A stretch of 63,741 bases of DNA, counting the filler, from Chrysochromulina tobinii (taxonomy: Eukaryota): the NCBI GenBank assembly GCA_001275005.1. It is 7 parts of 7 records of this genome, joined end to end, with 100 filler letters (N's around TTAATTAATTAA, not from the genome) between each part and the next. Parts side by side here need not be neighbours in the genome. Positions count along the whole stretch, not along the records: positions 53,742 to 58,142 come from JWZX01001427.1; 6 more parts are not named here. The stretch is one strand, 5' to 3'. This document shows, in pieces, positions 1,270 through 60,879 of the stretch. The notes beneath the pieces are model-generated. The model was not told where the DNA came from. It saw nothing but the letters and a program-made list of their open reading frames with translations, and did not search any database. Position numbers and translations under genes: made by a program. How positions within the stretch are numbered: position 1 is the stretch's first letter; each line of letters opens with the position of its first letter.

Positions 1270-3752
1270 ATGCCCAACAAGAAGAAGCCGACTGCGCCGA
1301 GTCGGTGTGCGGCTATCCTCGAGGATGACTCCGAACTCGACGACGACAAGGCGAACCTGGTCGACGACAGCGCTCCGGCGTACGCCGCGTTGCAACTCGG
1401 CAATACTCATGCTCACCGAGCGCCGGCGGCTGGCGTCACGCAGCTGCGACACAATATTGAGCTCGTCTCGTACCTTGTCCAAAGGCTTCCGCTTGGACTG
1501 CGTCTTGCAATCTTTGGTGGCCTCGGCTCGTTCCTGCTTATTTTCTTCGTCATTTTTGCAGCTGGTCTGCACCAGTTCCAGGCACAAGCACAGTCACCAC
1601 AGCCTCATCGGAGTTCATCTCACACGACTGTCCCCGATGTGTCCGCCGTCGCTCAGCAACGCCCGGCGAATGCGGCAAGCCACCCTCAACAGTATGCTCA
1701 TTCGCACGGACAAGCTCCCTCCGACGCCGCGCTCGTCTTGAACTCAGTCGAGTTCATCGAAATCGATGAGCCCTTCACGCCGCCGCCTCCACCTCCGCCG
1801 CCTCCGCCTCCGCCGCCGCTGCCCCCGCCCCCACAGCCAACCAACGACTTTCCCATAGTCGCCGGTGGCGTCGCCGGCTGGAGCGAGGGGCATACGACCC
1901 GGTACTGGGACTGCTGCAAGCCCACCTGCTCGTGGGCGAATAACGTACCGCTCGGAGCGACGCCATCGCGCTTCTGTGCGCGCGACGGTACCGAAGCCGT
2001 CAGCTCGGCCACTGATCGCCTCCGATGACCTCCGATGGCCTCTGATGGCCTCTGATGGCCTCTGAAGTGATGGCCTCCGATGGCCTCTGATGGCCTCTGA
2101 AGTGATGGCCTCTGATTGCAGGTGCCGAAGCCTTCAGCTCGGCCATGCCCTCCGCATGCCAACCCAATAAAAACGAGCTCGTCGGCGTGGCATGTGCTTA
2201 CACATGTGCGGCCGACGCGCCGTGGCGAGACGCGACCGATCCGTTGCTCTCGTACGGCTATGCTGCAGTGCCGGACAAGCGAGCATGTGGAGCCTGCTTC
2301 GAGTTCGAGTTCAGCGGCTCTGGCTACTACGACGCGACGCATGTGCAGCCCGGGCAGCCTGGGCAGCCGCCGCCCGATGAAACACGCGACGTCGGTTCGA
2401 TGCGCCTCCTAGGCAAGCGGATGATCGTCCAGGTGATGGCCTCTGATGACCTCTCTCATTAGGCAAGCTGATGATCGTCCAGGTGATGGCCTCTGATGAC
2501 CTCTCTCATTAGGCCAGCTGATGATCGTCCAGGTGATGGCCTCTGATGACCTCTCTCATGGACTCTCTCATGGACTCTCTAATGGCCTCTGATGGCTTCA
2601 GATGGTTGCTGGTGCCTATCTGATTGCGCCCCTCATCAGGCGTCCAATACGGGCTCGGACGTGCATGCAGGCCAATTCGACCTCTTGGTGCCTGCAGGCG
2701 AGTGGCAATTTCCCTTGATCTCCCTTGATGGCCTCTATGCATGCGGGCCTATTCGACCTCTTGGTGCCTGCAGGCGGCGTGGGCATCTACGACGCGTGCT
2801 CGGAGCAATGGAGCGTGCATGAGCGCCGCGTGCACCTCGGGGAGCAGTACGCTGAGTGCCTCGGACTGCCTCTGATGGCGTCGGTCTTGCCTCTGATTGC
2901 CTCTGATGGAGTTGGTCTGATTGGTCATCTGCCTCTAACTTCCTCTTACTGCCTCTGATTGCCTCTGATTGCATCTGATTGCATCTGATTGCATCTGATT
3001 GCCTTGATGGCCTCTGATTGCAGGTATGGCGGCATCTTGAGCACTTGCACTAATCAGCTTCGTCATCAGGACTCGCCGCCGCACCCCGCGTGCGCGCCCA
3101 GCAGCGCCGAGCATCGCTACGACAACGAGGCGTGCCATAACACGATCAAGGCGTGCGTCGCGAGCAAGTGTGTAGAACTCTTTGCTCCTTCACACCTCGC
3201 GCGGCTCCGTGAGGGCTGTGAATGGTTTGCGAACTGGTGCGACTCGATCCGAAGATGCGCCACTGATGACCTCTGATGACATCTGATGACCTCTGCTGAC
3301 AATGACATCTGAGGCCCTCTGATGACCATCTGATGACCTCTGATAACATTTGATGACCTCTGATGACCTCTGATGACATCTGATGACCTCTGATGACATC
3401 TGATGGTCTCTAGTGGGCCTCTGATGGCCTCATCTGATGACCTCCGAGTGCCTCTGATGCAGGGCTCTGATGGCCTCTGATGGCCTCTTTTGTACCTCTG
3501 ATGTACCTCTGATGTCCTCTGAAGCTCTGATGTCCTCTGATTGGCCCTGATTGACCCTGATTGACCCTGATTACGACCTAATTGGTCCATCCTTGCAGGT
3601 TCGAGGCGGCTAACGATCCAAAGATGCGCTGGCGGCGCGTACACTGCCCTGTGGGGATCTTCGCGGGCGGCATCCAAGGGGATGGCACGACACCGGCAGC
3701 GGCCCTGCTAGGCACCGCATCGACGATCATTGGTGCGAACACTGGGCGGTGA
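1270..3752 (+). CDS. GH45 endoglucanase, type II membrane-anchored; 6 exons: 1270-1987, 2122-2432, 2640-2697, 2774-2846, 3024-3236, 3599-3752
   Basis: GH45 signature TTRYWDCCKPTCSW; spliced frame continues ACGACFEFEF...GKRMIVQ|ASNTGSD...QFDLLVPA|GGVG...GEQ|YGG...GCEWFANW|FEAANDPKMRWRRVHCP. N-terminal TM helix and poly-Pro linker. Four GT-AG introns and one GC-AG intron (2698-2773) keep the frame. Confidence 0.9.
2012..3590 (+). repeat. Degenerate ~10-bp satellite (G/A)CCTCTGAT(G/T)G filling GH45 introns
   Basis: Arrays at about 2012-2118, 2433-2625, 2866-3020 and 3263-3575. Confidence 0.95.
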
Positions 3753-4513
3753 TCTGAGTCCGGAAAACCCCCGGATCTGAGACTTCGTGGAGAGTATTAG
3801 TAGAGTGCGCTTCATTTTATCTCTAATCATCGATTCCCGCATCCCGTAGTGTGTAGAAATGTGTGCGAAAATCATTAGAGTCCGCCGCTGCGCGTACGCT
3901 GCGCGCTGGCCCGCTGTTCCGCTCGCGTCGGCGCGCTCCTGCCGTGCGCTGCTCGAAGTCTATGCCGTCGAAGAACGAAGAGGGCAAGAGCCGTGGAAGT
4001 TGACTCTTGACAAGTTTTAGAGGACTGTCCACAAAAAGTGAGCTGAAGCTGTAGCGGAAACAATGACCACGAGACGAGATCCTGCTCCTGGATGGTATGA
4101 TGTATAACGGAAGCTTGACGTTTCAAGTGTTCCCTCTGGACCTAAACCAATCGTCTGGACATTTTTGTCCCACCATCACCGAACCCTGCCCGTACCGAAC
4201 CGTGTAAGTATGCTGTTCTATCCTACGGAGAACTGTAGACCGCTGTTGTCGCTGTATACACTGGTATACACACCCCGTTCTGGAGGCGGAACACACTCAG
4301 TCGTAAAATCAGGGTAAGCGGTACCAAGTCGTGGTCCCTGTGCTGCTGGAGCCGCGTCGCGCTTGCGCCTTGACGTACCGCCTACACCCAGAGAGATCTT
4401 CATGGACCCAGAGTGGCAAGACGGGCAGAAACAGGCTGACACCTGATTCACCCTCATCTCGTAAATCGCCGCGACGCCATGCTCTGCCTGACCCCCGGTA
4501 CACCCATGCCTCC

Positions 4514-7500
4514 CTATTCCTCTCCGAATGCCTCGCCTCGGCTGATTGGGCCGAGCTCGTCGGCAAACTTGGCGCACAGACCCTTCCACGCGCCGAGGCT
4601 GAGCCCAAACAGATGGCAGTGCGTCACTGCCTCCACGTACCTCTCAGACAGCACGGGCGCTTGCGGCCCATTGAAGGCGAGCATCTCGACGCCCACGGCA
4701 CCGTGACGGCCGACGATGAAGCCACGGCTGACGGGTTGCAGCTTCTCAAGTGCCGCATCGGATGATGAGATGGTGTCTACCTTGCCATCGCTCTGGTCGG
4801 CCGCGCCATCCGCCACAGCCACTATAAGGGCGTCGTGAGCGTCCTTGATGAGCATGACGGACCGCCGCCGCTGATTCGGAGTCGCAGGCGGTGACTTGGA
4901 CGGATCCGTCTCGCTGTACCGGGAGTGTTTGGGCGGCTCGCGCCCGCGGTGGACCCGGAGCTTGCCCACATCGACCAGGTAGAGCTGGACGGCGGGTGCG
5001 CCCTTGGTGATGACGGTGTCACTCTCGAGGAAGAGTTCGGGTTGGAGTACGAGGCAGATCTCAACGAGGGGGAAGAAGGTGAGGTTTCCGAGCGCGGGCA
5101 CATTGAGCAGGTGGTCACGATGCATCCATAGACCGAGGTCGCGGAGTAAAAAGGGCGGGAGCTCCTGGAGGAGATGCGCGTGCGAGATGCGTGGGTTGGA
5201 CGAGAGCACCCGGTAGTACGAGGCGATGCGCTTGGCCAGCATGTGCGGCAGCGGGTGATGCCTCATGTAGTGCTGCAGGTAGTCGGTCTGTGTCTGGAGC
5301 AGTTCCTCCTGGACGTCGCCCAGGCGCGCATACGATGAGATGAGACCGATGAGGTATGCGAACATCGAGGCCGCCACGAGCGCGAGCACTATGCAGAAGC
5401 CGGTCTCCCACGCGTTCTGCGGCCGCACGTCGCCAGACCCGATGCTCGCCATGTGGAAGAGAACAAAGTGGGCAGCGCGAAGGTACGACGTCCAAATGGT
5501 CACATGCGCCCAGTCCGCACGCTTCCAGGCGATGTCCTCGGTCATCCAATTGCGCCCGAGGGCGGAGAGGGGGAGCGTGTACGCATCGAAGAGGAACCAG
5601 CAGGCGAAAACGTGCGCGACGTAGATCCAGAAGCTCCAGGCACTCAAGAGGCGCGCCTGAGCCTTCGAGAGCCGAAGTTGAGGAGGCAGCCAGCCAAAGG
5701 CCACGCGGAAGTGCTCGAGGCAGCGCGAGCAGCGCAGCAAGCGCGGTAGGCGCAGCAGTGCGACGGCGAGCAGGATCGTCTTCGTATCACTCGTCGTCGC
5801 AAACCCGATCGGCGCCAAGGCTTCATATGGCAGTGTGGCGAGCACGTCCAGGCGCAGCTTAGCCTGGACATAGTGCGTGCGGATTGCCGCGTACGTGAGC
5901 TCGGACTTCATGAACCCATCGCGCCCGCGAGGGAGGAAGGGGAAGCAGTTGGCACGCAGCACCGAGTCGCACAGCAGGATCGCGTCGCAGGTCCATTGCG
6001 TCGCGAGCGCGGCCCACGCGCTGTCGACGCTCACCGGGCTACGCGGCCCGAAGGCGGCGATGATGAAGGGGATCGAGATCGCGAGATAGAAGGAGATCGC
6101 TGTCATCAACAGTTCCCACAGCTGCCGCGGCAGCGTCGAGGGTGGATAGACGTGATGGTAAGTCGCCGGATGCCGAACAGGGAGGACCGCATCGGTGGCG
6201 GGGGGGGGCACTTGCTCCTTGCTCGCCCGCCGCGACGACGGGCGCGAGGCGGGCGCCTCAACTGTTGGCGCCCACGACGGCGCCTCGACTGCTGGCGGCC
6301 GAGCAGAGGGCTCCGCTGCCGTCTGAGCGATGAGCTCCGCTGACGACTGTGGGATGAGCTCGACCCCAACGGTGCTTACCATTTTAGGCAACTCGACCCC
6401 AGCAGCGCTGACCGTCGGCGCTGAGCTCTCGACGTCCTCGGCACTGACACTCACGACTTGCGATAAGGGCGCCGAGCTGGGCGACCGCGGCCGACGCTCA
6501 AGACGACGCTTCCGGATGGCGAGACGGCCCGAGATTTGGACGGGCAAGATGAGGCGGGGCGCCGTGTCGCGGGCCTCGTCTAATTGCCCTCGTGATTGCC
6601 CTCCGAATTGCCCTGATTGCCCTGATGGCCCCGGCATGGCCTCGTCCGGAACGGCTTCCCGCACGATGCGTTCGTTGATAAATCGCTGGTTCGCACCCAT
6701 GGTGCGCACGAGCGACTCGAGCTTGGCAAGATACGCCGCGTCGTGATGCAGCCCGAAGAGCGCGCACGCCGCGTCGAGCTGCCGGCGCGTCAGTTGGATG
6801 ACGTGCGCCCGCGTCACCGCGCGCACCGAGGCATTGCGCGCGGTGCCTTGGAGAAAGAAGGAAACTTCCCCGAGCACCGCGCCGCTGCTTACGGTGGCGA
6901 CCACCTGCGACTTGGTGTGCTCGATCTGCTGCTTGGTGAAGCTCATCCTCTCGCCAAGGAGGTCTTCGGCTTTCTTGAGGCGCTGGACAGGCGTCGAGCG
7001 CACCTTGAGGCGGCCGCCGGTCGTGACGATCTCGAAGATGCCCTCGACGACGACGTACATGTCATACGTGCCTGTGTCGCCCTCGATCATCAGTAGCTCA
7101 CCCGGCGTGATGACGAGATCGCTCATCTCCTTGGTGATGTACCCGAGGACGGCCCGCGGCAAAAGGTCAGCAAGCTTCGTCTTGAGAAGCAACTCAAGGC
7201 GGATCGCCTTCGACGTCTCGAGCTGGAGCTGCGGCGGCAGCTTGCTCAACACGGCGTGATTCTTGCCGACGCCTCGGTAACCCGACCAGATGAGGTAGCG
7301 GACGACGCGATCCTGGAGCGCCGGCGGGACGGCATGGCTCGCCTGGACACGTTAAGGGCGCTTATGGCGTTGAGGTTAAATAGGGGGGGTAATTAGCAGT
7401 GCAAGTAGGAGGGCAAATAGGGCAGTTTAGGCAATCAGAGATGCCCGGGATGGCTCACCATGACCTTCTTCGTGTTGGCTAGCACGCACTCTTCCTCATG

Positions 7501-10500: not shown

Positions 10501-13500
10501 CCAATGGGACTCATCGCGACGGTCATCCAGTAGACCGAGCGCACGTACGCGTGGAAGGGGCTCATCTCGTCATCGGGAGATGCAATCTCGTCATCTCGTA
10601 TGAGCTCGCGCAGGTACACCGCGTCCCATGTGAGCCACGAGCCGCCCGTCCCGAAGTCGGACGCGCCAGCGAATGCATTGTCGCTCCGGACGAGGCCAAG
10701 CCACAGAAAGAGGCACCCGCTCCAGTGTAACCAAATGAGCCAGAAGAGGATCAGGTAGATCATGCGACGGATATGTAAGGACGGTGAGAGTGAGGGACGT
10801 TTCTGATGAATGTGGAAAAAGATCTCGCCAATCCAACTGCTAGTGCAGCGGAGGCGCACCAGCCGCGGCAGCATGAGGAACGGCGTTCCCGAAGGCGAAG
10901 GGTTCCACACGTAGCCTCCCCACTCCCATGGCAGGCAACACAGGACGTCGACGGCGATCCCAAGCCAGGCAAACCTGGAGCGGTCGCTCCGTCTCGATTC
11001 CTCGCGCTGGAGCTTCCCTGGGGGCATGAGCCAGTTGAGCTCGAGCGCGGCGACACACGCGGGGTTGTGCTGGCTCCACAGCTGCAGCCAAAGGACGACA
11101 TACGTCACTACGTCGGCGACCAGCCACCATGGGTTGAGGCCGGCGCGTCCCTCAAATGCGCAGCGGAGAGGGAGCACGAGGGCGAGGTAGCCGGCGGTGA
11201 GCAAGCGCAGCGTGAGCCAAAGGAATGGCAGCGTCTCTCCGCGCGACGCCCGGCTGTCCACTGCCGGCGCCTGGCTCATGATCCCCTTCGACGCCTGCAC
11301 GCCCATGACGGCGCGTTCTGCCGAGCGGCCGACGAAGAATCCGGTTGCAGACTGAGCCGACTGCTCGACGGCATGCTCACCGCCGTGATTGGTCGCCGCG
11401 CCACCGGCCATGACGCTGTCCACAGAGTGCCCAAGCTTAGCATGCATGTCAATCTCTGTCGACGGCGCGGGCTCCGTAGGAGGGGGCTCCGACTCGGGCG
11501 GTGTGGAGGGGGGGGAGGGAGGTGGCTCGCTGATGCCACCCACATCGCTGCCGGCACCCACAGACCACTGAACGAGCCGGGGTGCCGGCTCACTTGCCCG
11601 GAGCGGTGCTGCGTCAGGCATTGTGGGTGATAAGAAGGGCGATTGCGAGGAGGCAGCAGCTTCGCGCGCCGCAAGCAGCTGCACCACGTCGTTGCAGTGC
11701 AAGGCATGTACCTCCACGAAAGTCGCCGCTCGAAAGTCGGTGCGCGCTTGAACCACGCGCGTCGCAGCGGAAGGTAGGATGCAGTCACCCTCGTCGTATG
11801 CGCGGATCTGGCGGAGGCGATTGGCCGCGCGCTTTCGCCAGCGAGCGCTTAACGAATTCTCGGACAACACGCTGCGCTTCTGCGAACCCTCGGCCAAGGG
11901 GGAACCAGCGGCGCCACTCGAATTCTCCCTGACGGAGGCGTCTTCACATTCTTCCATCATTCCAAACTCAAGGACCATCCCTCGGACGAGCAGCCACGCG
12001 GTCGAGCACGTCTGCGGGACGATCGTGAGGGTGCCATCATCGGCGACGGACGAGCACTTGAGCAGATGCTCGTCCGTCGTGTAGATCACGGGGTAGAGCA
12101 GCCCGGCGAGGGCCGCGATCGTGTCCGCGTCCAAGCTGGCAAACGAGGGGATCGAGCGGAGCAGCTTGTGATTGAGTGCGAAGCGTACCTCGGAGCGGAG
12201 GGATGCAGGCAGCCCCGCAAAGAAGGTGCTCTCGTCGGCTCCTCTCAGGAAGAGCCATTGGTACTGCAGGTACTCCTGGATGCGCCTCGCGAGCTCCGGG
12301 GGGATCTTGTGTCTCTTGATGAAGGCGTCGGCACGCTCAACGCGCGCGAGCCACGTCTCCTTGAGCATGTTTGAGCCCTTGAGAGCCGGAATCAGTAGGC
12401 CGATCGAAGTACAGGCCGCAACCGTTGCCACAATTGAGGTGCAGACGTAGAAGATCAACTCTTCCAGCTTGGTGGGCACTATGTCACCGAAGCCGACGGT
12501 CGTAATCGTATTGGTTGCCCAGTGCAGCGCTCGCGCATAGTAGATCCAGGGATCTAACGGCCACCGAGACTCGAGCGCGAGCAAGTGAGACTAGGGAGAC
12601 TCAATCTGGGGAGACTCGATCTGGGGAGACTCGATCTGGGGAGACTCGATCTGGGGAGACTTGAGCGCGAGCACGCGAGTTGAGCAGCCAAGCACTCGGG
12701 CGCTGCGGCGGGCGCGGTGTCGTGCGTCAGCCATCCGGCGGCGGCGCACCCGACGGAGGCGGAGCGCGCTCAGCATCCCGACTTCTACACGTTTGAGGCA
12801 CCCACGAGCTGCCTAAAGCGACAAAGTCGACGTCCTGCCAGCCCGGCTCGTCGTCGACCCAGGTCCCCACCGCCTGCCATCCGCACGCAAACAGATGCAA
12901 CAGCAGGATGTACATGGGGAAGTAGGAAGTGATTCGAGCCCAGCCAACGGTGAAGCCCGCCTTGAAGCGCAGAAACCAGTAGGTCCCGCCAACCGGATTG
13001 CCTCGGGTGTTGGCGAGGCGCAGCAGGCGCAGAAGCGAGACATTCGTCCAGGTGCGCAGCGATGCATTGCTGAGCAGAAAGACCAGGTCGATCGGCATCC
13101 ACGCCAGTAGCCGGCGAAGGATCTCGAGGATGGCGATGCAGAGGCGGAAGGAGCGCCAGAACGGGGTGCCCTCCCCCTCGCCGCTAGCCTCCTCCTCTGC
13201 CTGCCTGACCGCTCCGATCGTCCGGTGCTCGACGAGCTCGGTCGGCGGAAGAAGCTGCCCCTGGGAGCGGGCGGCGCGGCGTCGAACATGCTCGCGCACC
13301 AGCGGCGTGATGCGGAGTGCGAGGAAAGCGACGTCCACGAGGTAGAGAGAGACGCAGTAGTTAGCAAGCTCTGGATACTGCAACGCCGGCCGGTCTGCGT
13401 ACTCGCCCCAGGTGGTCGACGTGAAACATGCGCGGAAGGGGAGCAGAAAGCCGTGCAAGATGCCGAAGACGCCGCTGCCCAAGTCGAACAAGGATTCTCT

Positions 13501-14039: not shown

Positions 14040-14434
14040 CATCGCCCGGCTGGTTGTGAGAGCCGATAAAGGCCGGAGAGCCGTCTGGAACTATCGAGTC
14101 CATGACGTCTACAACGCCACTCACGAGTGTGCCCCGCCACGTTGCGCGTTGCACGGCCGGTCGTTCACGTGCGCCGGTCAGAAGACTTAGCTAATAGCTA
14201 AGACTTAGCTACGCCTACGGTACTAATATTAACTCTTCGCCTGAGGCGCCAACCAAACCGTCTTGTTACTCTTTCTAGATGACCCCCAGCACGATTCGGA
14301 GCCGTCCTCGGAGTGTGTCGCGGACCGAAGATACCGTCCGGGGTCTGAGTTTGTTCGGTTAGATGATTAGACGGTTCGAGTTGTTAGACGAGCACACCAC
14401 TTTGGGTCCTCAGGACCGGAAGTACAACTGGAGC

Positions 14435-15077
14435 TCATGGAGCGAGTGATCTCAAGGTCCACATCCCATCCTTGAGCCAATGCGTATTCTCGACGGCGAT
14501 TCCTTTGTTGTCGGCCGCGATCTGCTCAGACGACATTGTGGTCACGCCGATCGCGAGCGCGTGCTCCTTCCCCTCTGCGAAGATGCCCACCAGCGACTCT
14601 GCGGGCACAGGGTCCATATGACCGCCCGGCGAGGTGAGCCCGGGTGCCATGATGTTGGCGCCTGAGAGCACGAAGCGGATCGCGCCGCGGTCCACGCGGA
14701 ACTTGGGCAGGATGTCCGGATACTGGTGCAAGAGCCTCAGCGTCGGCAGCCATGGCCCCTGGCGGCACTGGAAGAAGATGAACTCGTTGTCGGGTGCTGG
14801 GCCGACGAGCACCTGGATGTTATCTTTGCATTTGCACATGATGAGGGAATCCTTTTTGGGCATAATCTCCTCGATGTACTCCTCGAGCGCTGGAAACTGC
14901 TGCAAAATCGTGGCTTTGATCTGCCGCTGGTCTGACGAGCGCACCGGCGCACTGGTTCGTATGTGCTCCTCCTTAGTGAACTGCGCACGCACGCCGGAGT
15001 TGCGAGTCAGACGATGTTTGTGGGCGGTGCTACTGTGTGCGAGGTGTCGAGAAAGGAGCACGTGCCTTGCGGAACAT
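14435..15077 (-). CDS. MCTS1: MCT-1/Tma20 translation reinitiation factor (pre-PUA + PUA); exon 1 15077-15066, exon 2 14980-14435
   Basis: MFRK|FTKEE..., PTLRLLHQYP, VDRGAIRFVLSGANIMAPGLTSPGG, AEGKEHALAIG, KGIAVENTHWLKDGMW; an 85-bp GC-AG intron restores the conserved MFxKF start. Confidence 0.93.
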
Positions 15078-50264: not shown

Positions 50265-52085
50265 TTACATGCCAAACGCGTCCAAAAAGTCGTCGGCCGT
50301 CGCGTTGCCGCCGTGCACGTCGACCTCGGACGCGTCAAACTTGTGCATGCCGCCCGCCACCTTGACGCCCTGGGCCTCGAGCGCCTGCATCTTGGCGATC
50401 CTCTCGTCCTCCTCCTTCTCCTTCTGCTTGGCTTTGAGAGCGTTCTCCTCAATCTTCTTCTTCATCTCCGCCGCCTCCTGCTCCTTGAGCGCCTTGAGGT
50501 CGAATGCCGGCTCCGACGGTGCGGCCGGTGCGGCGGCGGCGGCCTTGGGCGGCGGCGGCGGCGCGCCCGAGAGCAGCGCAGCGAGCGCCTGCAGCGGGTT
50601 CTCTGGCCGAGTCTTCGAGATCGTATTGAGCGCCGCGTTGAGCGTGGGCATCACCTGCTTGAGGTACGCGGCGAGCTCCGTCTTTCCCTCATCCATCTCG
50701 GTGATCTGCTCAGGTGTGGGCACGAACTGCGGCGGCGAGGGGCCCTTCTTGGGCTTGCCGTAGATCTTCTCCATCGTCGTCACGAAGGGGATGAAGGTCG
50801 TTCCGCCCATGTACTCGACCAGCGCATCGGGTACCTTGATGCCGCACTTGGTCTGGTAATTCTCGATGACGCAGCAGAGGGCACGCTCGGTGGCGCAGAG
50901 CGTCGAGTTGAGCATGTGGCAATAGAGCTTCTTGCCGTCCTCGGTCTTGCCCTGGGTCCCAAAGCGCACCTCGAGCCGGCGCGACTGGTAGTCGGTGCAG
51001 TTCGAGCAAGAGACAAGCTCGCGATGCGCCTTGGAGCCTGGGAACCATGCCTCGAGGTCGTACTTCTTGGCGGCCGCGTCGTTCAGGGCGCCCGAGACGA
51101 TGTTGACGACGCGGTACGGGATGCCGAGCGACTGGTAAAACTCTTTGCAGTTGTTGATCATCGTCTGCTGCATCTGCTCCGACTCGTCGCCGATCGGCGA
51201 GGTGACGCAGAACTGCTCAATCTTCTCAAACTGGTGCACGCGGAAGATGCCTGCTTGGTCTCGTCCGTGCGAGCCTGCCTCCTTGCGGAAGCAGGTGGAG
51301 TAGCCCGCGTACTTTTTGGGCAGCGCCTTCGGGTCCATCCACTCCTCGTAGTGGTACCCGCACAGCGGTTGCTCGGAGGTGGCGATCAGGTACTGGTCCT
51401 CGGCGCCTCCGGTGACCTTGTACAGCTGCTCATCAAAGTCGGCGAGCTGCGCCACCTTACCCATGAGCGACTTGTTCATGACGAAGGGCGTCTGCACCAT
51501 CGTGTGCCCGCGCTCCGAAAGGAACTGCACCCCGTACGAGATCAGCGCCTGGTTGAGCCGCATGCCCATCCCAGTCAAGAAGTAGCCGCGCGAGCCCGCG
51601 ACGACCGAGCCCTTGGCCGTGTTCGCGAGGCCGGCGAGCTGGATGAGGTCGTAGTGCGAGAGCATCCATTCCTCGCTCTCGAAGACGCCGTTCGCGTCCT
51701 CCACGCGGTTGTTGTCCTCGTTATCGGACACGGGCACGTCATCGGGCACAAGGTTGCCGATCGTGACGAGCGTGGTGTCGCGCGCCTCGATGAGCTCCTT
51801 CTCCTTGGCCTCCAGCTTCGTGATTTCGGCCTCGGCATCCTGCTTCTCCGCCATCAGCTCGGGAGGCGGGGCCTCCTTCTTCTTCATGAACTCGCCAATC
51901 TTCTTCTGCACCTGGTTCAACACCTTTTTGGCATTGTCGAGCCCGCCGCGGGTCGTGCGCCACTCGGTGTCGAGCTCGATCACCTTGTCGACCAGCGAAA
52001 CATCCTTGTGGCGCCGCCGCTGCGACTCACGCACGATGTCCGGGTTGCCGCCCCGGTCGACGCGAAATAGGTCGATGTCCAGCAT
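50265..52085 (-). CDS. SARS1: Cytosolic seryl-tRNA synthetase with C-terminal Dpy-30/RIIa-like extension
   Basis: MLDIDLFR, IGNLV, YLIATSEQPL, CFRKEAGSHGRD..GIFRVHQFEKIEQF, ELVSCSNCTDYQSRRL, HMLNSTLCATER. Confidence 0.98.
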   Translation of the reverse strand: MLDIDLFRVDRGGNPDIVRESQRRRHKDVSLVDKVIELDTEWRTTRGGLDNAKKVLNQVQKKIGEFMKKKEAPPPELMAEKQDAEAEITKLEAKEKELIEARDTTLVTIGNLVPDDVPVSDNEDNNRVEDANGVFESEEWMLSHYDLIQLAGLANTAKGSVVAGSRGYFLTGMGMRLNQALISYGVQFLSERGHTMVQTPFVMNKSLMGKVAQLADFDEQLYKVTGGAEDQYLIATSEQPLCGYHYEEWMDPKALPKKYAGYSTCFRKEAGSHGRDQAGIFRVHQFEKIEQFCVTSPIGDESEQMQQTMINNCKEFYQSLGIPYRVVNIVSGALNDAAAKKYDLEAWFPGSKAHRELVSCSNCTDYQSRRLEVRFGTQGKTEDGKKLYCHMLNSTLCATERALCCVIENYQTKCGIKVPDALVEYMGGTTFIPFVTTMEKIYGKPKKGPSPPQFVPTPEQITEMDEGKTELAAYLKQVMPTLNAALNTISKTRPENPLQALAALLSGAPPPPPKAAAAAPAAPSEPAFDLKALKEQEAAEMKKKIEENALKAKQKEKEEDERIAKMQALEAQGVKVAGGMHKFDASEVDVHGGNATADDFLDAFGM

Positions 52086-52494
52086 GCTTGAGGGTTTCTC
52101 CCGTCGGCGCGCTTGCGATACTCACTATCAGATTATCGCGTGACACGCGGTTCATCTGGAACTGTGAACGTGATTGGTCGTGTGAGAACTACTACATTTT
52201 TGTGCTCCTTTCACAATCATTAAGTCCGAGGTTTCCAGGGGTCGCATCCTTACGGCGATCCCGGAGCGCCGAACTCGCGGCACAACTCGCCTGTGGAAAC
52301 CTCTCTGGCACCGCGACGACCTCGCCACCCACCAACCCTGTGGACCGAGGTTTGCAGGTTTCCATCGAATTTTTTTTCGAGCGTCGCGAAAAGAAACCGA
52401 GCGAGCCGAGTGCTTGCGTTCGCTTTCCGAGCGATCGCTCGCATTCCTCTTGCTCGTCGTGGAGCACATCCAGCGCGTCGTCGCCCCTTCTTCG

Positions 52495-53641
52495 ATGATG
52501 TTGGGCACCTTCCTGCTCGTCGTCGCTGCCGAGAGCGTAACCTCTACACCCTTTGTTGGGGCAAACGCGCTGCGGGCGAGTCATCAGCTCTTCCTCGGCG
52601 GCACCTCGCCTCCTCCCCATTCACTCTGCATGAACACGTCCGTGGACGCCTCGGACAACTATTGCGACAGCGCGGGCTCCGAGTTGCCGATGTGCGCGTA
52701 CGGCGCCGACTGCGTGGACTGCGCCCCGCGCATGCCGCGCTCGCCCCCGCATCCACCGGTCTCCAGCCCACAGCGCGCCCCCGCGTCAACACCTCCGGCA
52801 CCCCCTGCCCTTTTCATCAACACTGTCGCTCGCATCGGAATGCCAGCTGATGCCTCGGATGGCTGCTGCGACGACGGCGGCCCGGGCGCCGAGTACCCGG
52901 ACACCGACTGCGCCGACTGTGGCATGCGCCAACCGCTGCCTCTGCAGACCGCTAGTTCACCCCCCGGCAAGGGCATCTGCTCGGAGACGTGCTTCTGCGC
53001 CGATGGCGCCAACTGCGGATCGCACACCGCCGTGCAATCGTCGCCGCCGCCCTTGGCTCTACCGCCTCCGTCGCCTCCAAGGATGCCGCCCACTCCTGGC
53101 AGCATCTCGGCCGGCACGCCCTCGCCACCCTCGCCAAAGCCAACGGCCCCTCCGCCGCTGGCCGCACCCTCGCCACCGCGGCCTTCGCCACCGCCGCCGC
53201 CGATGCAGCCCCCCTCGTCGCCCCCGCCGAGTTCGCTGCCGCCGCCCCACGGCGCCACCCCTCACACGCATGCCAACTCTGCAGCCACTGGATGCAAGGC
53301 CACCGCTCTCCAAGGTGAGAAGGGTCGATTCGCTTGCCTGCTCTCGATGGTCTTCTTCGCGATGGCTGGCCTGGTCGCACGGTTGGTGGGGCTGTGTAGA
53401 GCACTGCGTTCGAGCACGATGCGAGACGGGACGCAAGGAGCACGTGGGAGTCGGCGAGGAAGGTCGCAGCCGGGATGTGCTCGATGGAGAGTCTGGCTGG
53501 CTATCCTCCTCAGCTTCGACAGGATGGCGAACGTGGAATGCCAAAGTACCTCCGGGTGCCCGGCTAGTTGGTACTTGGTGCCCGGCGACTGCCCCGATTG
53601 GGGTACAATCAACGGTTATGGCGGTGGCCAGGTTGTTAGCC
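52495..53641 (+). CDS. Secreted or membrane Cys-rich, Pro-rich protein, partly eroded repeats (3'-truncated)
   Basis: Signal peptide; repeated C.DGGPGAEY/C.YGADC.DC..R modules, several internally deleted; SPPP stalk; hydrophobic segments. Confidence 0.55.
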
Positions 53642-53741: not shown

Positions 53742-53893
53742 ATCCGTTCTGCCGGGGTGCCCATGGATGTCTCATGCCCGTCATCGTAGATGTGTCGACC
53801 CATCCGGCGTGAGCTGTGAATGGTCGCCTCGGTAGGAGTTTGGCCCAGGTAGGACCCCCGAGAGGCCGGCGTGAGTCGAGACGGAGGACGTTG

Positions 53894-56800
53894 TTAGAGG
53901 AGGCGCGGCGGCCCCGCTTTCCTGACGCGTCGTTTGACCGACGCGTCGGTCAGGGCGGCTGCGACAGTGTCGTGCGTGGCGGGGTAATGGTGCCCCTCGC
54001 ACTCCACGATGTAGGTGTGCTTGGAGAGGTTGCCCGCCGCGAACGTGTACGCACCTGCGTACGCGACGACGCGTGCGTCCGAGTACTCTCCGTCGTCCCA
54101 GCCCCAAAATGAGTTGTGTAGACGAACTGATTGCCCGACGACGCCCCAACTTTCCTCGCCTGCTTGGGCGAGCGCGACGTGGTCCCCTATGTTGTAGAGA
54201 ACTCGCTTGGCGTCCGGTTCGGCGGTGCCCTTCGCTACGTCGCCTGTGGCAGGGGTGGCGCGGCGTTTGCCGTGCTTGGCGCCGCCCCCGACCGTCGGAT
54301 TCTCTCGCGCGGTGCGGCCTGCCTTGGCCGTGCGGGCTGCCTCGGCGTCAATGGCCGCGAGAGTGGCCTCGTTCTCGGCAAGCACGGCTGTAGGGTCAAC
54401 CTCGGGAAGGTCCTCGGGCGCAGTGCCGTCGGACTCGACGTGCATGTCCGTGGCCATGTCGACGTAGTCGGCGTACCGTTGGGCTTCCATGCGAGCGTAG
54501 ATACGCATGGCCTCGGGCGTCTTCCACCGGACGAGCGACTGGATGACGCCCTCGATGGCGTCGACGGGGATGCCGTCGGTTCTGGCCCCGCGTCGCGCGT
54601 ACAGGCGGGTAGCGATGGTGATGCGACAGCTGTGCCATGAACGCTTCGCTGCCTCCGTTTCCGTCATTACCTTGGGCAGGAGCGAGTGGAGCAGCGCGTC
54701 CGCCTGTTTGCCGGTGAAGGGCCTGTTGTCTCCGGTCGGCGAGAAGGCGGGCCACCAGGAGCGCTCGCGCTCGGGGCATGGGTGTGCCATTTCCCATTGT
54801 TGCCAGTGTCGCGCGAAGTTGAGGGGGTTCTTGTCATCGTAGCGGAACCACATGTCGCGCCCGCCCCATTCAATGTTGAGGCGGTCGCACTTGGAGGGGG
54901 CGGACTTGCCCCTTAGGAGGTCGCCGTTCTTGCGAGAGGCGATGACCTCGGGGGAGCTCGGTAGGTCGTTGCCGTCCTTGTCGACCCATGCGAAGCTCGC
55001 GCGGCGTACGAATGAGTCGCCCTCGAAGGAGGCGGTCCACTCGTCCTTCCGTGCGCCCGTGGAGAGCGCGTAGCCGAATGCCGTGAGGACCGCCATCCGT
55101 AGAACGTCGCTCCACGCGGTGAGGGTCGTCACCGGCCTCGTGAGGAGCGCGAGGATCTCGAGCACGTGCCGGCTCGAGAAGGGCTGCTTGCGGTTCGGTA
55201 TGAAGGCCTCGTCGCCCCAGCGTGCCTTGTACCGCGCGCAGATGCCCTTGAGCACGCCCCGTACCTCGGTGAGGTCGGGCGTGTATCGCCCGCAGTCGCG
55301 CATGACGCGCCTCCAGCCGTAGAGGGCGAGCAGCGCGCTCGTGGGCATGCCTTGCCCGTACCCTGCGCGCCGTCGCCGTGCGGACGGGGCGATCATCTGG
55401 GCGATCCAGACGAGCGCCAGGATGGCGAACCATACTTCGCATAGTACGTCGGTGGAGGTAGAGACGGAGCGCGGTCGCATCCACGGGTTGTTGGTGGCTT
55501 CTGCGAAGCGCCGGACCCACGTGAACCCCCACTCGTCGGCCCCTGTCGTTCCGTGGGGGATGCCCGCATCGCGTGCCTCCGCGGCGTCGATGATGATGCC
55601 GCGGAGGAGGTCGGGTCGATCGGGGCAAAGCGCATACTGCGATTCGTGTGTAGTCAGCCTGTGTGCGACGTCGTGGGCGGCCTGCCGCCGCGCCTCCGCG
55701 GCGGTCTTAGGCTGCGGTGACCTCGATCGAACTTGGGGGTACGCCGCGATCGCCTGGTCGATCGCCTCCGTGGAGGCGGCGACGTGCTGCCGGCGGGGGG
55801 AACCGCGGCGTGCGAGCGCGTCGATGACGTCGTCGCACGCGGCTGCCCCGGGCAACGAAGAGCGGGCGAGGGGCCGGCGTGTGGCGCCGGCCATCGCAAA
55901 CGGAGGCGATGGCGCCGCGGCTGTGGCTGCGCAGTGCGGAGCGAGCCGCGGCGAGGCCCGTCGCAGCGGCGCGGGCGTCGTGCCCAAAGTGGGGTGTTCC
56001 CTGGCCGTCGGCGGCGGTCGGGGCGCACTTACGAGTGGGGGCGGTGACGCTGCCGCCGCGCCCTGGGCGTTGGGCATGTCGCCGATCATGCTGGGGTTGT
56101 GCGTCCCCCTTGTGGTCGCATGTGCCATGGTGTATGCGTCCCAGGTCGCTTCGACGGCTGCGCGGAATTCGTCCCATGATGATGAGCGCTGAGCCTGCGC
56201 GGTGTCGTCGAGCGTGTCTCGAGGGTGTGCGTACGGCGGCGTCCATCGATCAGTGCGCTCCCGCGGGGGGGGCGCTACGGGGGGCGCGCTGCGCCCTCGG
56301 GGCGTGTTTTTGGCCGTGAGCGCGCGTAGGTCGCTGCTCAGGTCGTCGTAGCCGCTCGACGTGTGCGTCGTGGACTCGTCCGTCTCGAGCCAGGGAGCAA
56401 GCTGTGCGAGGAGTTCGTCGTCGATGCCCATCTCCTCGTCAGGGGGGCCGCCTTGAGGCGCGAGGATTGTGTTAATCCGTGTGCGTTTGGGCGTACGCGG
56501 TGTCGCACCTGTCATTGCGCCCTTAGAGACCGCCGTGCTCGGAGGGGAAGGCGGGAAGGTCGGCGGCGGCGTTGCGGCGGGCACGCCCGCGCGCAGACGT
56601 TCGTCTCCGAGTGAGACCAGGCTGTTGACGGCGGAGACCTCGTCGGGTGAGCATGCCGATGGGGGTCCGTCCGATTGGCTGCTGGAGCCGGCTTGCCCCG
56701 TTGGCACCGTCGCTGCCGCTTCCGCGCTCGCCTCGGCGAGGATGCATGCCTCGATTTTGTCGACCCATTGTTCGCAGGTGCGCTGGGGGCAGCCGTAGGC

Positions 56801-58142
56801 GGCGCCGGCCTGCGCTGGCGAGGCAAAGAGGTGCGGCCTGCGTAAGAAGCGGCACGCCGCTTGCACGGCGGTGAGGGCGGACGTCTTGATCCTCCCTGAG
56901 CCTGTCCGTTGGGCGATCATGACGGACCAGCGCGCGATCTCGATGGTGTCAGGTGCGTCGCTGTGCAGGGCGCCGTCGAGCAAGTCGAGGAGCTCGGCCA
57001 TTGAGTACTGAGCGATGGGCATGTCACCCGTCATGCTCAGATTGTGCGTGCCCCTTGACGTTGAGTGCCGGCTGCCTGTGGTGGACTCGTCATCAGATGC
57101 GTCGGAGTCGTTCAGGTCGAAGTGCGGCAGGCTCTCGAGCCTCGCTCGCCATTCGCCGCGCCTTAGCCCTAGCCATTCTTTAAAGACATGCATGACCTGC
57201 TCAGAGAGAAGTATGTCGATGCGACCTTGGCGATGCTCCGCGTCTTCGAGGCGCCGCCGTCGCGGGGCTCGTTCGACTGGATCGCATCTGCATTGGCACA
57301 TGCATCCGCAGCCGCAGCCGACGGGCCAGCACAGATCGCAGAAACGGCCCTCGTCAGGGTAGACTGGCAGTGGGCAGGCGGGGCAGGCACACCACGCTAT
57401 TGCCCCTTCTGGAAGCGGGGGGGGCGCCGTCCGAGCCAGCTCGCTGAGCTGGCCGCTTCTTGACGGGTCGCGGTCGACGCGGTGTCCAGGGCGTTCGCGT
57501 GGGGCCGCGTCTACCTCGGCGAGGCGGGCGCGCACCTCGTTGTGCGCGTTAGAGAGCCGCTCCTGCAGCTGTCTGTACTCCTCCTCGCGTGCGGGCAGCT
57601 GCGCGCGTGCGTCCTCGAGTTCGGCGCGAGCCCGGTCGCGCTCCACGCGAGCATCGTCTCGTTCGTCTCGCATTCTCCGACGGGCCACTCGGCGTGCCGC
57701 CCGTTGTTCGCGCTGCGACCTGGCGGCTTGCTGGAGTAGGGCGTCGATTCGAGCTTGCGCGGTGGCGGCGGCGCGCTCTGCCCGTCGTGCGTCGGCCGCG
57801 CGCGACTCTCGTTGGTCCCGCCACCATTGCGTCGGGTTCTGCCCAGCGGGGAGCCCGAGGGCGAGGGCGGTCGCGCGGCTCGCTGCGGCGGTGGCCCAGC
57901 CGGTCGTGCTGCCGTGCCGTGTCCCCTGGGCCGCGCTTGCAGCTTCCGCGCGCGTTTGCTGCTCGATTTCGAGCATCCATGTTCTGCACATGCTCTCCGT
58001 GCAGCGAGTTTCGCACACCTGCTCCGTATAGCTCGCCGCGAAACCGATCGAGGGGAACATGTGTGGCCTGCGTAGGCATCGGCACGCGGCTTGCACCGCG
58101 ACGACGATGAGGAGCGCGCTGTTATAGGGCCGCCGGTCGAGG
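53894..58142 (-). mobile_element. Tyrosine-recombinase element (DIRS/Ngaro/Crypton-like), intronless ORF of >1,400 aa, open at the 5' contig end
   Basis: YR catalytic residues R (STGARKDE, ~55050), K (SKCD), HxxR (HSCR, ~54623-54634), RW (~54525) and Y (AMRIY, ~54498), preceded by a helical core-binding region. No RT/RNase H in this contig. Confidence 0.85.
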
Positions 58143-58242: not shown

Positions 58243-60879
58243 CAACCTCCAAGTCGATCGATCCTTTGTTGCCAGTGGAGACGTTCTCAATGCGACCACC
58301 GGTCCGGAGAGGCTCAACGCGGCAGTCGCGAAACAGAGCTCTGTGACGTGCCCTGCGACGGCCTTCAGCTGCCCGACCGCGACCTTGCGCAACAGCTCCG
58401 TCGAGGCTTCAGCACTCACGGGACTCCGCGCGGACGTGAGTCTCGCAGTGATGGCCAGCAATGTGCGTTTGGCCAACGGCGTGGCAGCGGACCTTTTCGT
58501 GACGCTCCTGGATACCTCTGATCTCATCGCGAGCCTCTCCGAAGCGACCCACGTGAACGTGAGCATCACCATATCTTCGCTGTATGCCCAGTACGTGCAC
58601 CCGCGTCTCGGCCTCATCATCATCCGGGGCAATCTCCCACCCCCACCGCCAGCGCGAGCGAGCGACGCGAGCGCCGCAACCATAGACGCGGTCACGACTG
58701 CTGTGACAACTGTAGTTGCAGCTGCCGTGGCTGCAGCGGTCGCAGGAGCTGTTGCCGGTTCCGTGGGTGGCGCCGCGGGCGGTGCTGCTGGTGGCGGTGC
58801 AGGTGGCGGCGGTGCAGGTGGCGGCGCCGGTGGCGGCGTGGCTCCGCTCATCTTTGGAGTGCAGCGCTTCAGCGCGTCTTCTGGGCTGGCCGCCAACCAG
58901 AGCGAGTTGCAGAGCGGAGTAGCTGGTGGCATGGGATGGGCCTCGGGGTCCTTTGGCGCCTTTGGCGGCAGCGGCGGCGGCGACGACGGTGGCGGCAGCC
59001 GGCGACGGCTATCCATCTGGCTGGCACGGCGGCTGGTTGACCTGAGTGAGAATGCAACCAGCAGCGACGCGGACATCAACGGGAGCAACACGGACGACTT
59101 CTTCGACTGTGTTGATTGGGGGCGGCGGCGGCTCAACGAAGGAGGTGGCGGGGAGGGGGGATCGGCAACAGAGTGTGGCGAGGACGCGCCGGACACGCTG
59201 GCCGCTCTCATCGACAACCTAGTGACGTTCGTCATGGCCATGTCGCTCGTCACGTCCATCCAAGTGTGCGTGCAGATCTACTGGATGAAGCGCATGAATA
59301 AGAAATACTACGAGCAGAAAGAGAAGGAACCGGACAAGTTTTCCATGGGCAAGGGCAGCCCGTTCAGGCCGCTTCCCGGCGTCTTCGTCTTTCCAAACAT
59401 GCAGAACCTCGTCATGTCACTCTTCGTCACCGGGCTGGTCAGGAAGTCCATAGAGCTGCTGCTGGACACGAATATCACGTGCACCATAGCCCAATGCCGC
59501 TGGCCGGGTCTCATCATCCTCGTCGTCGTTGGGCTGTTCTTTCTGTCGGGCTTCGTGACGCTGCTTCACTTTTGGTGGTATTACTCTGCGGACTCGTGGG
59601 AGTGGTTCGAGCCTGCGGATCTGTCAGAGGTGGATGATCCGGCGTTCTGGCTGGTCTCGAAGATACGCCTTCGGTGCTGTCCAGACAGAATCCGAGGCAA
59701 GAGATTCAACCTGGTGAATCGCGTACGCGGTGACTGGACCAAGTCCGAGGAAGACGTCGTGGAGCCCGACCGCACAGAGCGACTTCTCGCCCATCCGGTG
59801 GTGCTCCTCCGCCCACGTGCAGGAGATGCAATCGACGGCAATAAACTGCTCTGGCTCAACCGCGCCTCGGGTAGCTATGGGATCAGCGGCGTCTTGTACG
59901 AGTGGCTGCTCCTCCTCATTCAGCTGAGCATCGCGATCCTCACAGGCATCGGCCCTGCCATCGAGCCGGGCTCTCCTGAGGCCGACGCGCAGATGTACGC
60001 GGTGATCTGCCTGCAATATGGCATTGCAGTGTACACGATGTTTGGCGGCCCGTCCGCGGACCGCATCGACAACTTTGTGATCACCGCGCAGTACCTGACA
60101 GAGGGCACGTGCACGCTCCTGCTGCTCGTGTCGGGCTTCCCCGAGCTGTTCGATCTCCAGCCTCTGATTCAAATGGTTGTCTTCTTGCTGCTGCTCTTCG
60201 GGATGTTCATTCCCATCCTTGAAAAAGGGTACGAAGCCATCGTGGTGCAGCTGATCAAGTGCGTGTACAACATGGAGGAGATGTCAATCACGGAGTGCTG
60301 CATCGCCATTGTAGGCTTCCTTGCAGCCATCCCTAGCATGCTTGCGGCGCTGGTGGGCGTGGATGCCGGGGATGGCCTCATGGAGACGTTTGTTGAGAAA
60401 GTGGTCAACGCTGCCGCGGACGTGGCGGAAGAGGCCGCAGCCATCGCTGCTGTCATGGACAACCTTCTGTTCAACATGCGCCAAAAGTATGCGGCTAGCA
60501 AGTTCAACGCTGTGGCCAGAAAGCGACACGGGAAGAAGCAAAGAGCGGCCACGAAAGTTCAATCCAAGGTCCGGGCTCACCAAGTGCGCACCAGACAGCG
60601 GTGGCAAGGCGCCGGAGAAAGGGATCTGGCAGCCATCCTGATCCAAAGGGCCTTCCTCACCAAGAGGAACCTGAAACGCGAGGGCGTCTCGCTAAAAAGG
60701 GTGCTGATCAATCAGCTTCGGTACAGGACGGTCTTGAAATCACGCGTGGGCATTGGCTCGCACTGGACAAACGTTGGTCCTGAGAAGCCCTCGGCGGGCT
60801 CTGAGATATTTAGCAAGCGTCTCGCAGCTGCCCTGCGCACGAAGCAGGAGTTCAGCGACGAGGAAGTTGGCGCTTTTGA
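58243..60879 (+). CDS. Large multipass membrane protein with C-terminal IQ motifs (truncated at both ends)
   Basis: Ala/Gly-rich stalk, about 8 TM helices, IQ-like AATKVQSKVRAHQVR and AAILIQRAF. Confidence 0.75.

Follow-up and report, generated by a model that had tools for sequence, protein, structure and literature searches.

The window analysed here is a 63,741-base stretch of Chrysochromulina tobinii DNA, and the fifth of its seven contigs (positions 53742–58142, 4,401 bases) is filled by one long open reading frame (ORF) on the minus strand. We conclude, with a probability of about 0.9, that this frame is the 3′ part of a giant ORF2 of a tyrosine-recombinase retrotransposon of the order DIRS, with repeats of the Ngaro/PAT type. 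The window copy, which is cut at both contig ends, likely has the parts seen in its relatives. An earlier note on this stretch, made from the sequence alone, had left a choice between a DIRS-type element of unusual make-up, seen here through its distal ORF, and an undescribed tyrosine-recombinase DNA transposon with no reverse transcriptase (RT). The former is borne out by an upstream RT–RNase H region, by A1...B1A2B2 repeats and by continuity with an RT-bearing contig; the latter is contradicted, as RT–RNase H lies in the same ORF of the relatives and is continuous with the window contig. The element is accordingly an atypical representative of an established group, not a novel type of transposon.

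The open reading frame and its contig

The contig is flanked by N spacers, and the neighbouring contigs of the window therefore provide no physical context. On one neighbour, a 606-residue frame without introns (50265–52085, minus strand) may encode a seryl-tRNA synthetase, judging by its sequence. On the flanking contigs, two long plus-strand frames (52414–53641 and 58343–60879) extend into N spacers; one of them contains many proline repeats of the SPPPP type, and the other has hydrophobic stretches of a multi-pass kind and a basic tail resembling an IQ motif. The frame is open over 1,415 codons from 58141 to 53897, with the stop codon at 53896–53894, and fills its contig as a single frame, as the earlier note had reported. 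It has no stop at its 5′ end and the gene thus runs off the contig. The main features at this level are as follows.

53742–58142, minus strand: whole contig, an internal piece of the element that begins within ORF2 and ends shortly ahead of B1, the first of the 3′ repeats, as placed by the N spacers on both sides and the alignment to metagenome contig L004
53894–58141, minus strand: 3′ part of ORF2, 1,415 codons plus stop, 5′ end open, with 29 relatives and constraint measured against L004 (see below)
53742–53893, minus strand: 3′ untranslated sequence, 152 bases from the stop codon to the expected B1, 87.9% identical to L004 6963–7092
58055–58142, minus strand: 88-base overlap with metagenome contig L006, which bears an RT–RNase H region in the same frame

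Selection on the frame was estimated as the ratio of nonsynonymous to synonymous substitution rates (dN/dS) against L004, the nearest full relative (79–83% DNA identity). The ratio was 0.27 over all 1,407 aligned codons, with values of 0.09 for the catalytic domain of the recombinase, 0.12 for its N-terminal domain, 0.16 for a C-terminal barrel and 0.08 for a cysteine cluster (residues 241–300). The charged stretch (0.34), two modules termed M′ (0.45) and M (0.51) and a proline-rich linker fall in the range 0.34–0.51. Rows computed against L008 were disregarded for the N-terminal modules of the window, where that alignment is non-homologous. Because dN/dS is low in all parts, the 1,415-codon frame is coding and is not a chance frame of GC-rich DNA; its enzyme parts are the most constrained. 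Neither the whole window protein nor any of its four pieces has a Pfam match, and neither the protein nor an 18-sequence profile found a PDB match by sequence, except for one low-complexity match with an expectation value (E) of 0.12.

Continuity with contigs that carry a reverse transcriptase

The start of the window contig, in gene orientation, is identical to the last 88 bases of L006, where the frame passes from the end of RNase H through a linker motif (described below) into the window's first 29 residues. Contig L014, 96.4% identical to L006 over 3,408 bases, extends across this joint and matches the window's first 402 bases at 89%. Both halves of the element lie on a single contig in L004 and in L005 (79–83% identity). 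The reverse complement of the window contig aligns to L004 at 2613–4231 and 4607–7092 (79–83% identity) and stops one base short of the L004 repeat B1, which starts at 7093. Additionally, DNA run X2 contains 88% of the sampled words of the window contig, and an X2 contig extends past 58141 and agrees with L006 at 27 of 30 places. Given the continuity with RT-bearing contigs and the B1 boundary, both contig ends are assembly breaks in a repeated element. Judged from these sequence overlaps, the lack of an RT in view on the window contig is an assembly artefact.

Reverse transcriptase and RNase H in the relatives

Residues 840–1415 were used as the query for relatives, which yielded 29 proteins with E from 0 to 7e-64. 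These include P0002 (98% identity, 1,099 residues), P0005 (88%, 2,180 residues), P0006 (87%, 2,445 residues) and P0007–P0009 (66–67%, 2,224–2,427 residues), the last three on contigs of 10–11 kilobases (kb). Relatives of 2,000–2,450 residues carry an RT–RNase H region upstream in the same ORF, plus an N-terminal region. In these long relatives, sequences resembling RT motifs A to E appear as DDxxHMFFQF, MNMGxRxASK, YTDD and WLSEK...GGRLVLNGGFGC, followed by the RNase H-like motifs SDAC, ESDATAS and ANALPDAGSR. A single ORF encodes RT, RNase H and recombinase in P0005–P0009, L007, L011, L015, L017 and L024, and the recombinase is C-terminal to RT–RNase H in every long relative. Motif C reads YTDD in 14 of the 30 proteins (the window's and its 29 relatives) and YTDN in four more (P0019, P0021, P0022 and P0025). 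An RT–RNase H stretch matching P0006 is present, though short in some, in 26 of the 27 loci obtained by scanning metagenome contigs.

Sequence profiles did not recognize this region. Pfam gave no RT family match in any of 19 relatives at E up to 0.01, and no RT or RNase H family match in any of 10 diverse RT–RNase H segments at E up to 10; a family profile searched against solved structures by sequence found no relative. The domain calls are based on predicted structures. The model of L014:11561–14140 (860 residues, 48-row alignment) has a predicted local distance difference test score (pLDDT) of 90.9 and a predicted template modelling score (pTM) of 0.75. Foldseek listed no fewer than 500 matches with an E of 0.001 or lower, and its top RT matches are those of Moloney murine leukaemia virus (MoMLV or MMLV), human endogenous retrovirus K (HERV-K), xenotropic murine leukaemia virus-related virus (XMRV), cauliflower mosaic virus (CaMV) and human immunodeficiency virus 1 (HIV-1), with E from 3e-12 to 1e-9 over 570–700 columns. 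VIA-align matched MMLV RT with a Z of 15.3 (326 residues, model 27–663) and Ty3 RT with a Z of 14.9, and, within model 675–808, RNase H1 (Z 12.0, over 679–808) and HIV RNase H (Z 10.1). By its predicted fold, the upstream domain is a retroviral/Ty3-type RT with an RNase H, invisible to Pfam.

In the YTDN clade, the second catalytic aspartate is replaced and long open frames are otherwise retained.

Structure of the recombinase

The recombinase occupies the following positions.

55187–55720, minus strand: N-terminal helical domain of the core-binding type, residues ~808–985 (model residues 19–196)
54398–55186, minus strand: tyrosine-recombinase catalytic domain, residues ~986–1248, dN/dS 0.09
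Catalytic codons, minus strand: R1031, 55049–55051; K1084, 54890–54892; H1170, 54632–54634
Catalytic codons, minus strand: R1173, 54623–54625; W1206, 54524–54526; Y1215, 54497–54499

The catalytic set, which the earlier note had described as intact, comprises R1031 in ARKDE, K1084 in SKCDR, H1170 and R1173 in HSCR, W1206 in RW and Y1215 in IY; R, E, K, H and R are invariant among 22 aligned relatives, down to 34% identity. An AlphaFold2 model of residues 790–1415 (the C-terminal 626 residues) was built from a 22-sequence alignment and has a mean pLDDT of 80.3. Foldseek against the PDB placed Cre on every listed row down to rank 21, followed by XerH, the Tn1549 integrase and XerA; the best match is 1ma7_A (Cre), with an E of 4e-4, a probability of 1.00 and a template modelling (TM) score of 0.66 on the target. 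Among 48,161 chains, the highest matches by VIA-align, which is independent of Foldseek, are an archaeal Xer (Z 14.6) and Cre 1kbu_A (Z 14.4, root-mean-square deviation (rmsd) 3.6 over 291 residues, model 29–457), and the next are phage, integron and lambda integrases. The 27 chains with a Z of at least 8 are recombinases, type IB topoisomerases, Ndc10 and the integrase-like regulators SroF/MrpR. The ALOG domain 8p5q matches the N-terminal recombinase domain (Z 7.2, model 73–194), and PF00589 scores above its cut-off in the relatives P0027, P0120 and P0143.

As modelled, this is a two-domain recombinase with a Cre/Xer-like fold. It shares with Cre and Xer (1kbu, 4a8e) both the two-domain fold and the R-K-H-R-W-Y catalytic set, and in Cre, as here, the tryptophan lies nine residues ahead of the tyrosine. 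In contrast to these enzymes, to which it has 10–13% sequence identity, it has insertions in the catalytic domain and is fused to a polyprotein and a C-terminal barrel.

Anatomy of the complete element

The split direct repeats are seen in full in L025, in which A1 (4906–5095) recurs as A2 (14565–14755) with 93.7% identity and B1 (14364–14567) recurs as B2 (14822–15025) with 97.5% identity. B1 adjoins A2, and the unit is ~10.1 kb. L024 has the same four repeats, and B1/B2 pairs are found in L004, L005, L015, L020 and L021, being 100% identical in L004, L005 and L015. Self-comparison of L025, L024, L015 and L004 on both strands revealed direct terminal repeats only and no inverted ones. An ORF1 of 800–900 residues lies upstream of the giant ORF in every subfamily, with 21–43% identity across subfamilies. 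ORF1 has no Pfam match, a CCHC knuckle is found in none of 12 ORF1 translations, and the ESM Atlas gave only a lead to zf-CCHC clusters (0.76); its identity as gag is thus an assumption from position. The overall layout is A1-ORF1-ORF2-B1-A2-B2 over ~10–12 kb. For the window subfamily, we estimate an element of ~12.4 kb when L014 and the window contig are combined with the 3′ repeats that L004 provides.

The RT and split-repeat termini that the earlier note had proposed to look for are thus present in relatives, as an RT–RNase H region and A/B direct repeats. That note had also held that its reading would fail if a standard gag–RT–RNase H element of the DIRS type, nested in a known clade, lay upstream. 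An RT–RNase H region and an ORF1 in the gag position do lie upstream, but the RT is not standard, since it is invisible to Pfam in 10 of 10 segments.

These repeats and the RT also bear on two other kinds of element. The window itself displays a recombinase and non-enzymatic modules only, as would a Crypton-like tyrosine-recombinase DNA transposon that lacks an RT and carries accessory DNA-binding modules. Cryptons have a recombinase with neither RT nor long terminal repeats; the relatives, however, have RT–RNase H upstream, with the motif C and locus counts given above, the element is framed by split direct repeats, and the window contig ends at a repeat boundary. We consider a Crypton-like transposon very unlikely. 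Integrated viruses and polinton-like elements that use a tyrosine recombinase are a further candidate, as such elements are reported to occur in algae and to bear recombinases. We give this origin hardly any credence: no relative was found in the viral contig collection, RT–RNase H is present, and the 10–12 kb units showed neither a capsid gene nor one for polymerase B or packaging.

Some copies are not intact. In L004, the RT–RNase H part (2–2521) and the downstream part (2052–6956) are in different frames, as are the corresponding parts of L005 (1–3915 and 3446–8350), with an overlap of ~470 bases; this reflects either frameshifted copies or a programmed shift. Stops occur in L019, L020, L021 and L025. 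Together with the location of the RT off the contig, these frame breaks and stops would suit a window copy that is itself a 5′-deleted or otherwise defective derivative without an RT, dependent on full-length copies, in a family that is otherwise as described. The window frame, however, is open to the very end of its contig, and the 88-base in-frame overlap with L006 and the X2 contig that extends upstream with L006-like letters also argue against a defective copy, which we regard as improbable.

Two further observations concern the metagenome contigs. Tandem repeats with units of 273, 165 and 75–81 bases occur where ORF2 codes for its N-terminal part, after ORF1 and ahead of the RT, at the following loci.

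L005, 1–701
L006, 1021–1491
L019, 2769–3645
L025, 7718–8437
L027, 7432–8151

L010 is circularly permuted, with identical ends (1–123 equals 12184–12306), such that the RT leaves at the 3′ end and resumes at the 5′ end. It could represent collapsed split repeats, a tandem array or a circular form.

Family size, copies and expression

A profile of the RT–RNase H region matched 796 clusters (formed at 50% identity) with an E of 0.001 or lower; the number is 470 at 1e-10 and 173 at 1e-30. The proteins reach a length of 3,629 residues. Among 22 distant long matches analysed with Pfam, DNA_methylase (PF00145) lies ahead of the RT-like part in seven (six above cut-off), Phage_integrase (PF00589) occurs in six (two above cut-off), NADAR and deoxynucleoside kinase occur in one each, and the RT family is found in none. 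At an E of up to 0.01, Pfam detected no methyltransferase family in 19 relatives, nor did it detect one in the window protein, which leaves room for a divergent one. The shorter and near-length relatives found with a recombinase profile are family members or fragments only, with no named outgroup. Family members are annotated as hypothetical proteins or are unnamed, including all 85 proteins from the recombinase-profile search.

Near-identical proteins form clusters, the largest of which has 72 members. Contig pieces that align to the window contig number 69 in DNA run X1, 91 in X2 and 48 in X8 and fall into three likeness classes, which fits several diverged copies per sample.

In the gene models P0342, P0341 and P0337, a piece of the recombinase region is joined to domains of host type (ribonucleotide reductase small chain, PAD_porph and DAGAT); the match of P0342 to the window covers 18% of the query, with 100% identity. 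On their sequences, these three are likely to be insertions beside host genes.

An intact frame under purifying selection could also mark a domesticated gene, that is, an immobile single-copy host gene derived from the recombinase of a mobile element. Against this stand the many diverged copies in the same samples, the fully identical terminal repeats of L004, L005 and L015, and the fusions of P0337, P0341 and P0342 to unrelated host domains, which point to different insertion sites. Domestication accordingly seems scarcely credible, and a mobile retrotransposon of the order DIRS is preferred.

In a freshwater metatranscriptome, 13 pieces match the window contig, four of them at 99% identity or more; they fall in 12 of its 30 bins and leave the other 18 bins empty. 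A preprint on Prymnesium parvum reports 'Ngaro LTRs' that overlap integrase-like gene models (10.1101/2022.10.25.513657).

Assessment of the assignment

Several points weigh against the assignment to a complete DIRS-type element. The 88-base overlap is located at contig ends in both assemblies and could be a node common to several copies, and no further piece of the element was found on the six other contigs of the window. The RT, ORF1 and the terminal repeats are off the window contig, and the full anatomy is consequently read from relatives with 79–96% identity. In the window protein and its close relatives, Pfam detects neither an RT nor an RNase H nor an integrase. Since the RT–RNase H and downstream parts are out of frame in L004 and L005, an unbroken ORF is not a feature of all copies. 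Placement among the groups of the order, such as Ngaro and PAT, is suggested by layout and domains. Finally, the metatranscriptome gives a hint of transcription, from 13 short pieces in one data set in which DNA carry-over is possible.

The variable region between RNase H and recombinase

The region between RNase H and recombinase forms a slot whose contents differ among members. In the window its order is M′, charged stretch, Cys cluster, linker motif, M, proline-rich linker and linker motif, with the following features.

57857–58141, minus strand: module M′, residues 1–95, truncated by the end of the contig; first copy of the AVQAACRxLRRPH module, a possible helix-turn-helix
57422–57856, minus strand: Arg/Ala/Glu/Gln-rich stretch, residues 96–240, presumed helical from its composition only; the 'coiled coil' of the earlier note
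57284–57397, minus strand: Cys cluster, residues 249–286, 13 Cys in 38 residues, no Pfam match
57002–57067, minus strand: copy of the linker motif, residues 359–380, RHSTSRGTHNLSMTGDMPIAQY
56702–56956, minus strand: module M, residues 396–480, second copy of the AVQAACRxLRRPH module
56057–56122, minus strand: copy of the linker motif, residues 674–695, AHATTRGTHNPSMIGDMPNAQG, ~110 residues ahead of the recombinase

The novel accessory modules and the dense Cys cluster of the earlier note are real. The modules have no Pfam family match, and the cluster lies where that note had placed it and is highly constrained (dN/dS 0.08). The AVQAACRxLRRPH sequence of M′ is repeated internally at residues 425–437, and the M′ module of relative P0008 has a sub-threshold match to HTH_23 (16.5 bits; cut-off 24.6). 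Residues 105–216 of the charged stretch contain 28 R, 26 A, 14 E and 10 Q out of 112. The Cys cluster, a candidate metal-binding module, is shared with three relatives (P0004, P0005 and P0024-like), and one regular expression retrieved it from four of 241 proteins. A search of the ESM Atlas with residues 1–424 gave no usable match.

The slot contains the Cys cluster and lacks M′ and the charged part in P0005, and lacks both in P0006 and P0007. More distant members carry other cargo, namely ubiquitin (P0022, P0028), NUDIX (P0024) and DUF4326 (P0026).

Module borders are marked by a 22-residue motif, xHxT[ST]xGxHN[LP][SN][ML]xG[DN]MP[IN]A[QH]x, present in one to three copies per protein. Of the 30 proteins, 16 have it, as do the L011 and P0033 lineages, whereas the deeper clades of the family lack it. 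At the end of the RT–RNase H model, it is located in linker sequence of low confidence. Its copies differ at synonymous sites, which indicates that the constraint acts on the peptide. Elements of the order DIRS are said to have no protease (PMC12440569). No protease is recognisable in the polyprotein here, and the linker motif may be one of its sites for processing or docking.

Two other roles for the motif were considered and rejected. Skipping of the 2A type does not apply in general, as ...NPGM is found in the aligned place only in P0018 and NPGP in none. A role at the DNA level, as a splice or recombination site, does not agree with the differences at synonymous sites and the lack of a fixed dinucleotide.

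The C-terminal barrel

53912–54202, minus strand: C-terminal small beta barrel, residues ~1314–1410, SH3/Tudor/chromo-barrel-like, followed by the basic tail KRRVRKAGPPRLL

The aromatic, beta-rich C-terminal domain of the earlier note corresponds to this predicted small barrel, the strands of which are at 526–600 of the recombinase model (pLDDT 79–93). The barrel is present in relatives down to ~40% identity and has no Pfam match in eight of eight members at E up to 10. Foldseek matches are weak: the MSL3 chromo-barrel (probability 0.80–0.82), Rtf1 Plus3 (0.69–0.85) and 53BP1 Tudor (0.57). VIA-align also gave weak matches for model 536–615, with Z of 5.3 for the AIPP3 BAH domain, 5.0 for a designed SH3 barrel, 5.0 for KOW, 4.9 for SMN Tudor (rmsd 2.4 over 54 residues), 4.7 for PHF19 Tudor, 4.6 for the RBBP1 chromodomain and 4.6 for PWWP. 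A Z of 4.5–5.3 is in the range that the tool rates as common, and the barrel was modelled only as part of the 626-residue segment. The predicted fold is read as SH3-like, of the Tudor/chromo kind. The fold matches thus agree with the guess of a Tudor/SH3-like barrel in the earlier note, although they are weak.

Proposed mechanism and significance

Following the published split-repeat model, the element would be transcribed and its RNA copied by the RT, with the split repeats allowing the cDNA to be completed to a closed unit that has one A-B junction. The recombinase would insert this unit by conservative recombination without target duplication. We further propose that the barrel, the helix-turn-helix-like M modules and the Cys cluster may choose or hold the target DNA or chromatin, and that the repeated linker motif may serve processing or docking in the polyprotein.

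A bolder synthesis, which we offer as possible but doubtful, is that these elements form a deep and mostly unannotated branch of tyrosine-recombinase retroelements, in which RT, RNase H and recombinase are welded together around a cargo slot. In the window clade, the His-Asn linker that borders the slot would provide protease-independent processing, and the Tudor-like barrel would steer insertion to marked chromatin. Other lineages, the dinoflagellate SymbioDIRS among them, would have added methyltransferase, NUDIX, ubiquitin, NADAR and nucleoside-kinase domains to this scaffold.

Tyrosine-recombinase retrotransposons are less well understood than any other class of retroelements, and most of their diversity in protists is uncharted. 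Because Pfam misses this family, standard annotation overlooks its members or calls pieces of them host genes. For annotators, short contigs 'filled' by a recombinase ORF are to be regarded as assembly fragments of 10–12 kb elements. The fused polyprotein, variable cargo slot and reader-like barrel make the family a natural system for host-domain capture and target choice. The repeated linker motif is a concrete candidate for polyprotein processing in a class described as protease-less (PMC12440569).

Comparison with known elements

A limited literature search found no account of this family, of a fused RT–RNase H–recombinase ORF or of a barrel on a recombinase of the order DIRS. As in that order, a tyrosine recombinase is present, and an LTR (long terminal repeat)-type RT with RNase H is present in the close relatives, off the window contig. 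Split direct repeats characterise Ngaro, PAT-like and VIPER-like elements (PMC8547959, PMC6681497), and the A1-[ORFs]-B1A2B2 arrangement is found in L025 and L024. RT–RNase H is followed by the recombinase, as in the Ngaro gene order, and ORF1 occupies the gag position, without a Pfam match or CCHC knuckle. The Pfam-recognisable RT and RNase H in separate ORFs of described Ngaro elements are not seen here, and the VIPER-like order, with a recombinase ORF ahead of RT/RNase H, occurs in no long relative.

The four Ngaro types of Cafeteria burkhardae (PMC8547959) are similar to the family in their A1-[ORFs]-B1A2B2 layout, with an ORF in the gag position, RT/RNase H and a tyrosine recombinase. They are also alike in that no methyltransferase domain was detected and that the recombinase has HxxR and a catalytic tyrosine. 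The Cafeteria elements, however, are ~6 kb in size, compared to ~10–12 kb here, and have separate ORFs, whereas RT, RNase H and recombinase are here fused in 2,000–3,100 codons. Their RT and RNase H were found with PF00078 and PF17919, both of which find nothing in this family. Unlike them, the family described here has an ORF1 of 800–900 residues, extra modules between RNase H and recombinase, and a barrel after the recombinase.

PAT-like elements (PMC6681497) share the tyrosine recombinase, the split direct repeats and the position of the RT before the recombinase. In contrast to PAT-like and DIRS1-like elements, no adenine-methyltransferase domain was detected here, and the inverted terminal repeats and internal complementary region of DIRS1-like elements have no counterpart in the family (PMC6681497).

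SymbioDIRS-Dnmt3 of Symbiodinium (de Mendoza et al. 2018, PMC5890265) is similar in its A-coding-B-A-B arrangement and in carrying accessory domains inside the Pol polyprotein. It differs in that its Pol polyprotein includes a cytosine methyltransferase, which the window clade lacks, and in that its recombinase is in a separate ORF, whereas here it is in the same ORF as the RT. The PF00145-bearing distant relatives fit SymbioDIRS-Dnmt3, to which they are likened by its description (PMC5890265). Overall, the family is set apart from the known group by its fused RT/RNase H/recombinase ORF and its cargo slot bordered by linker motifs, and it has distant relatives that carry a cytosine methyltransferase.

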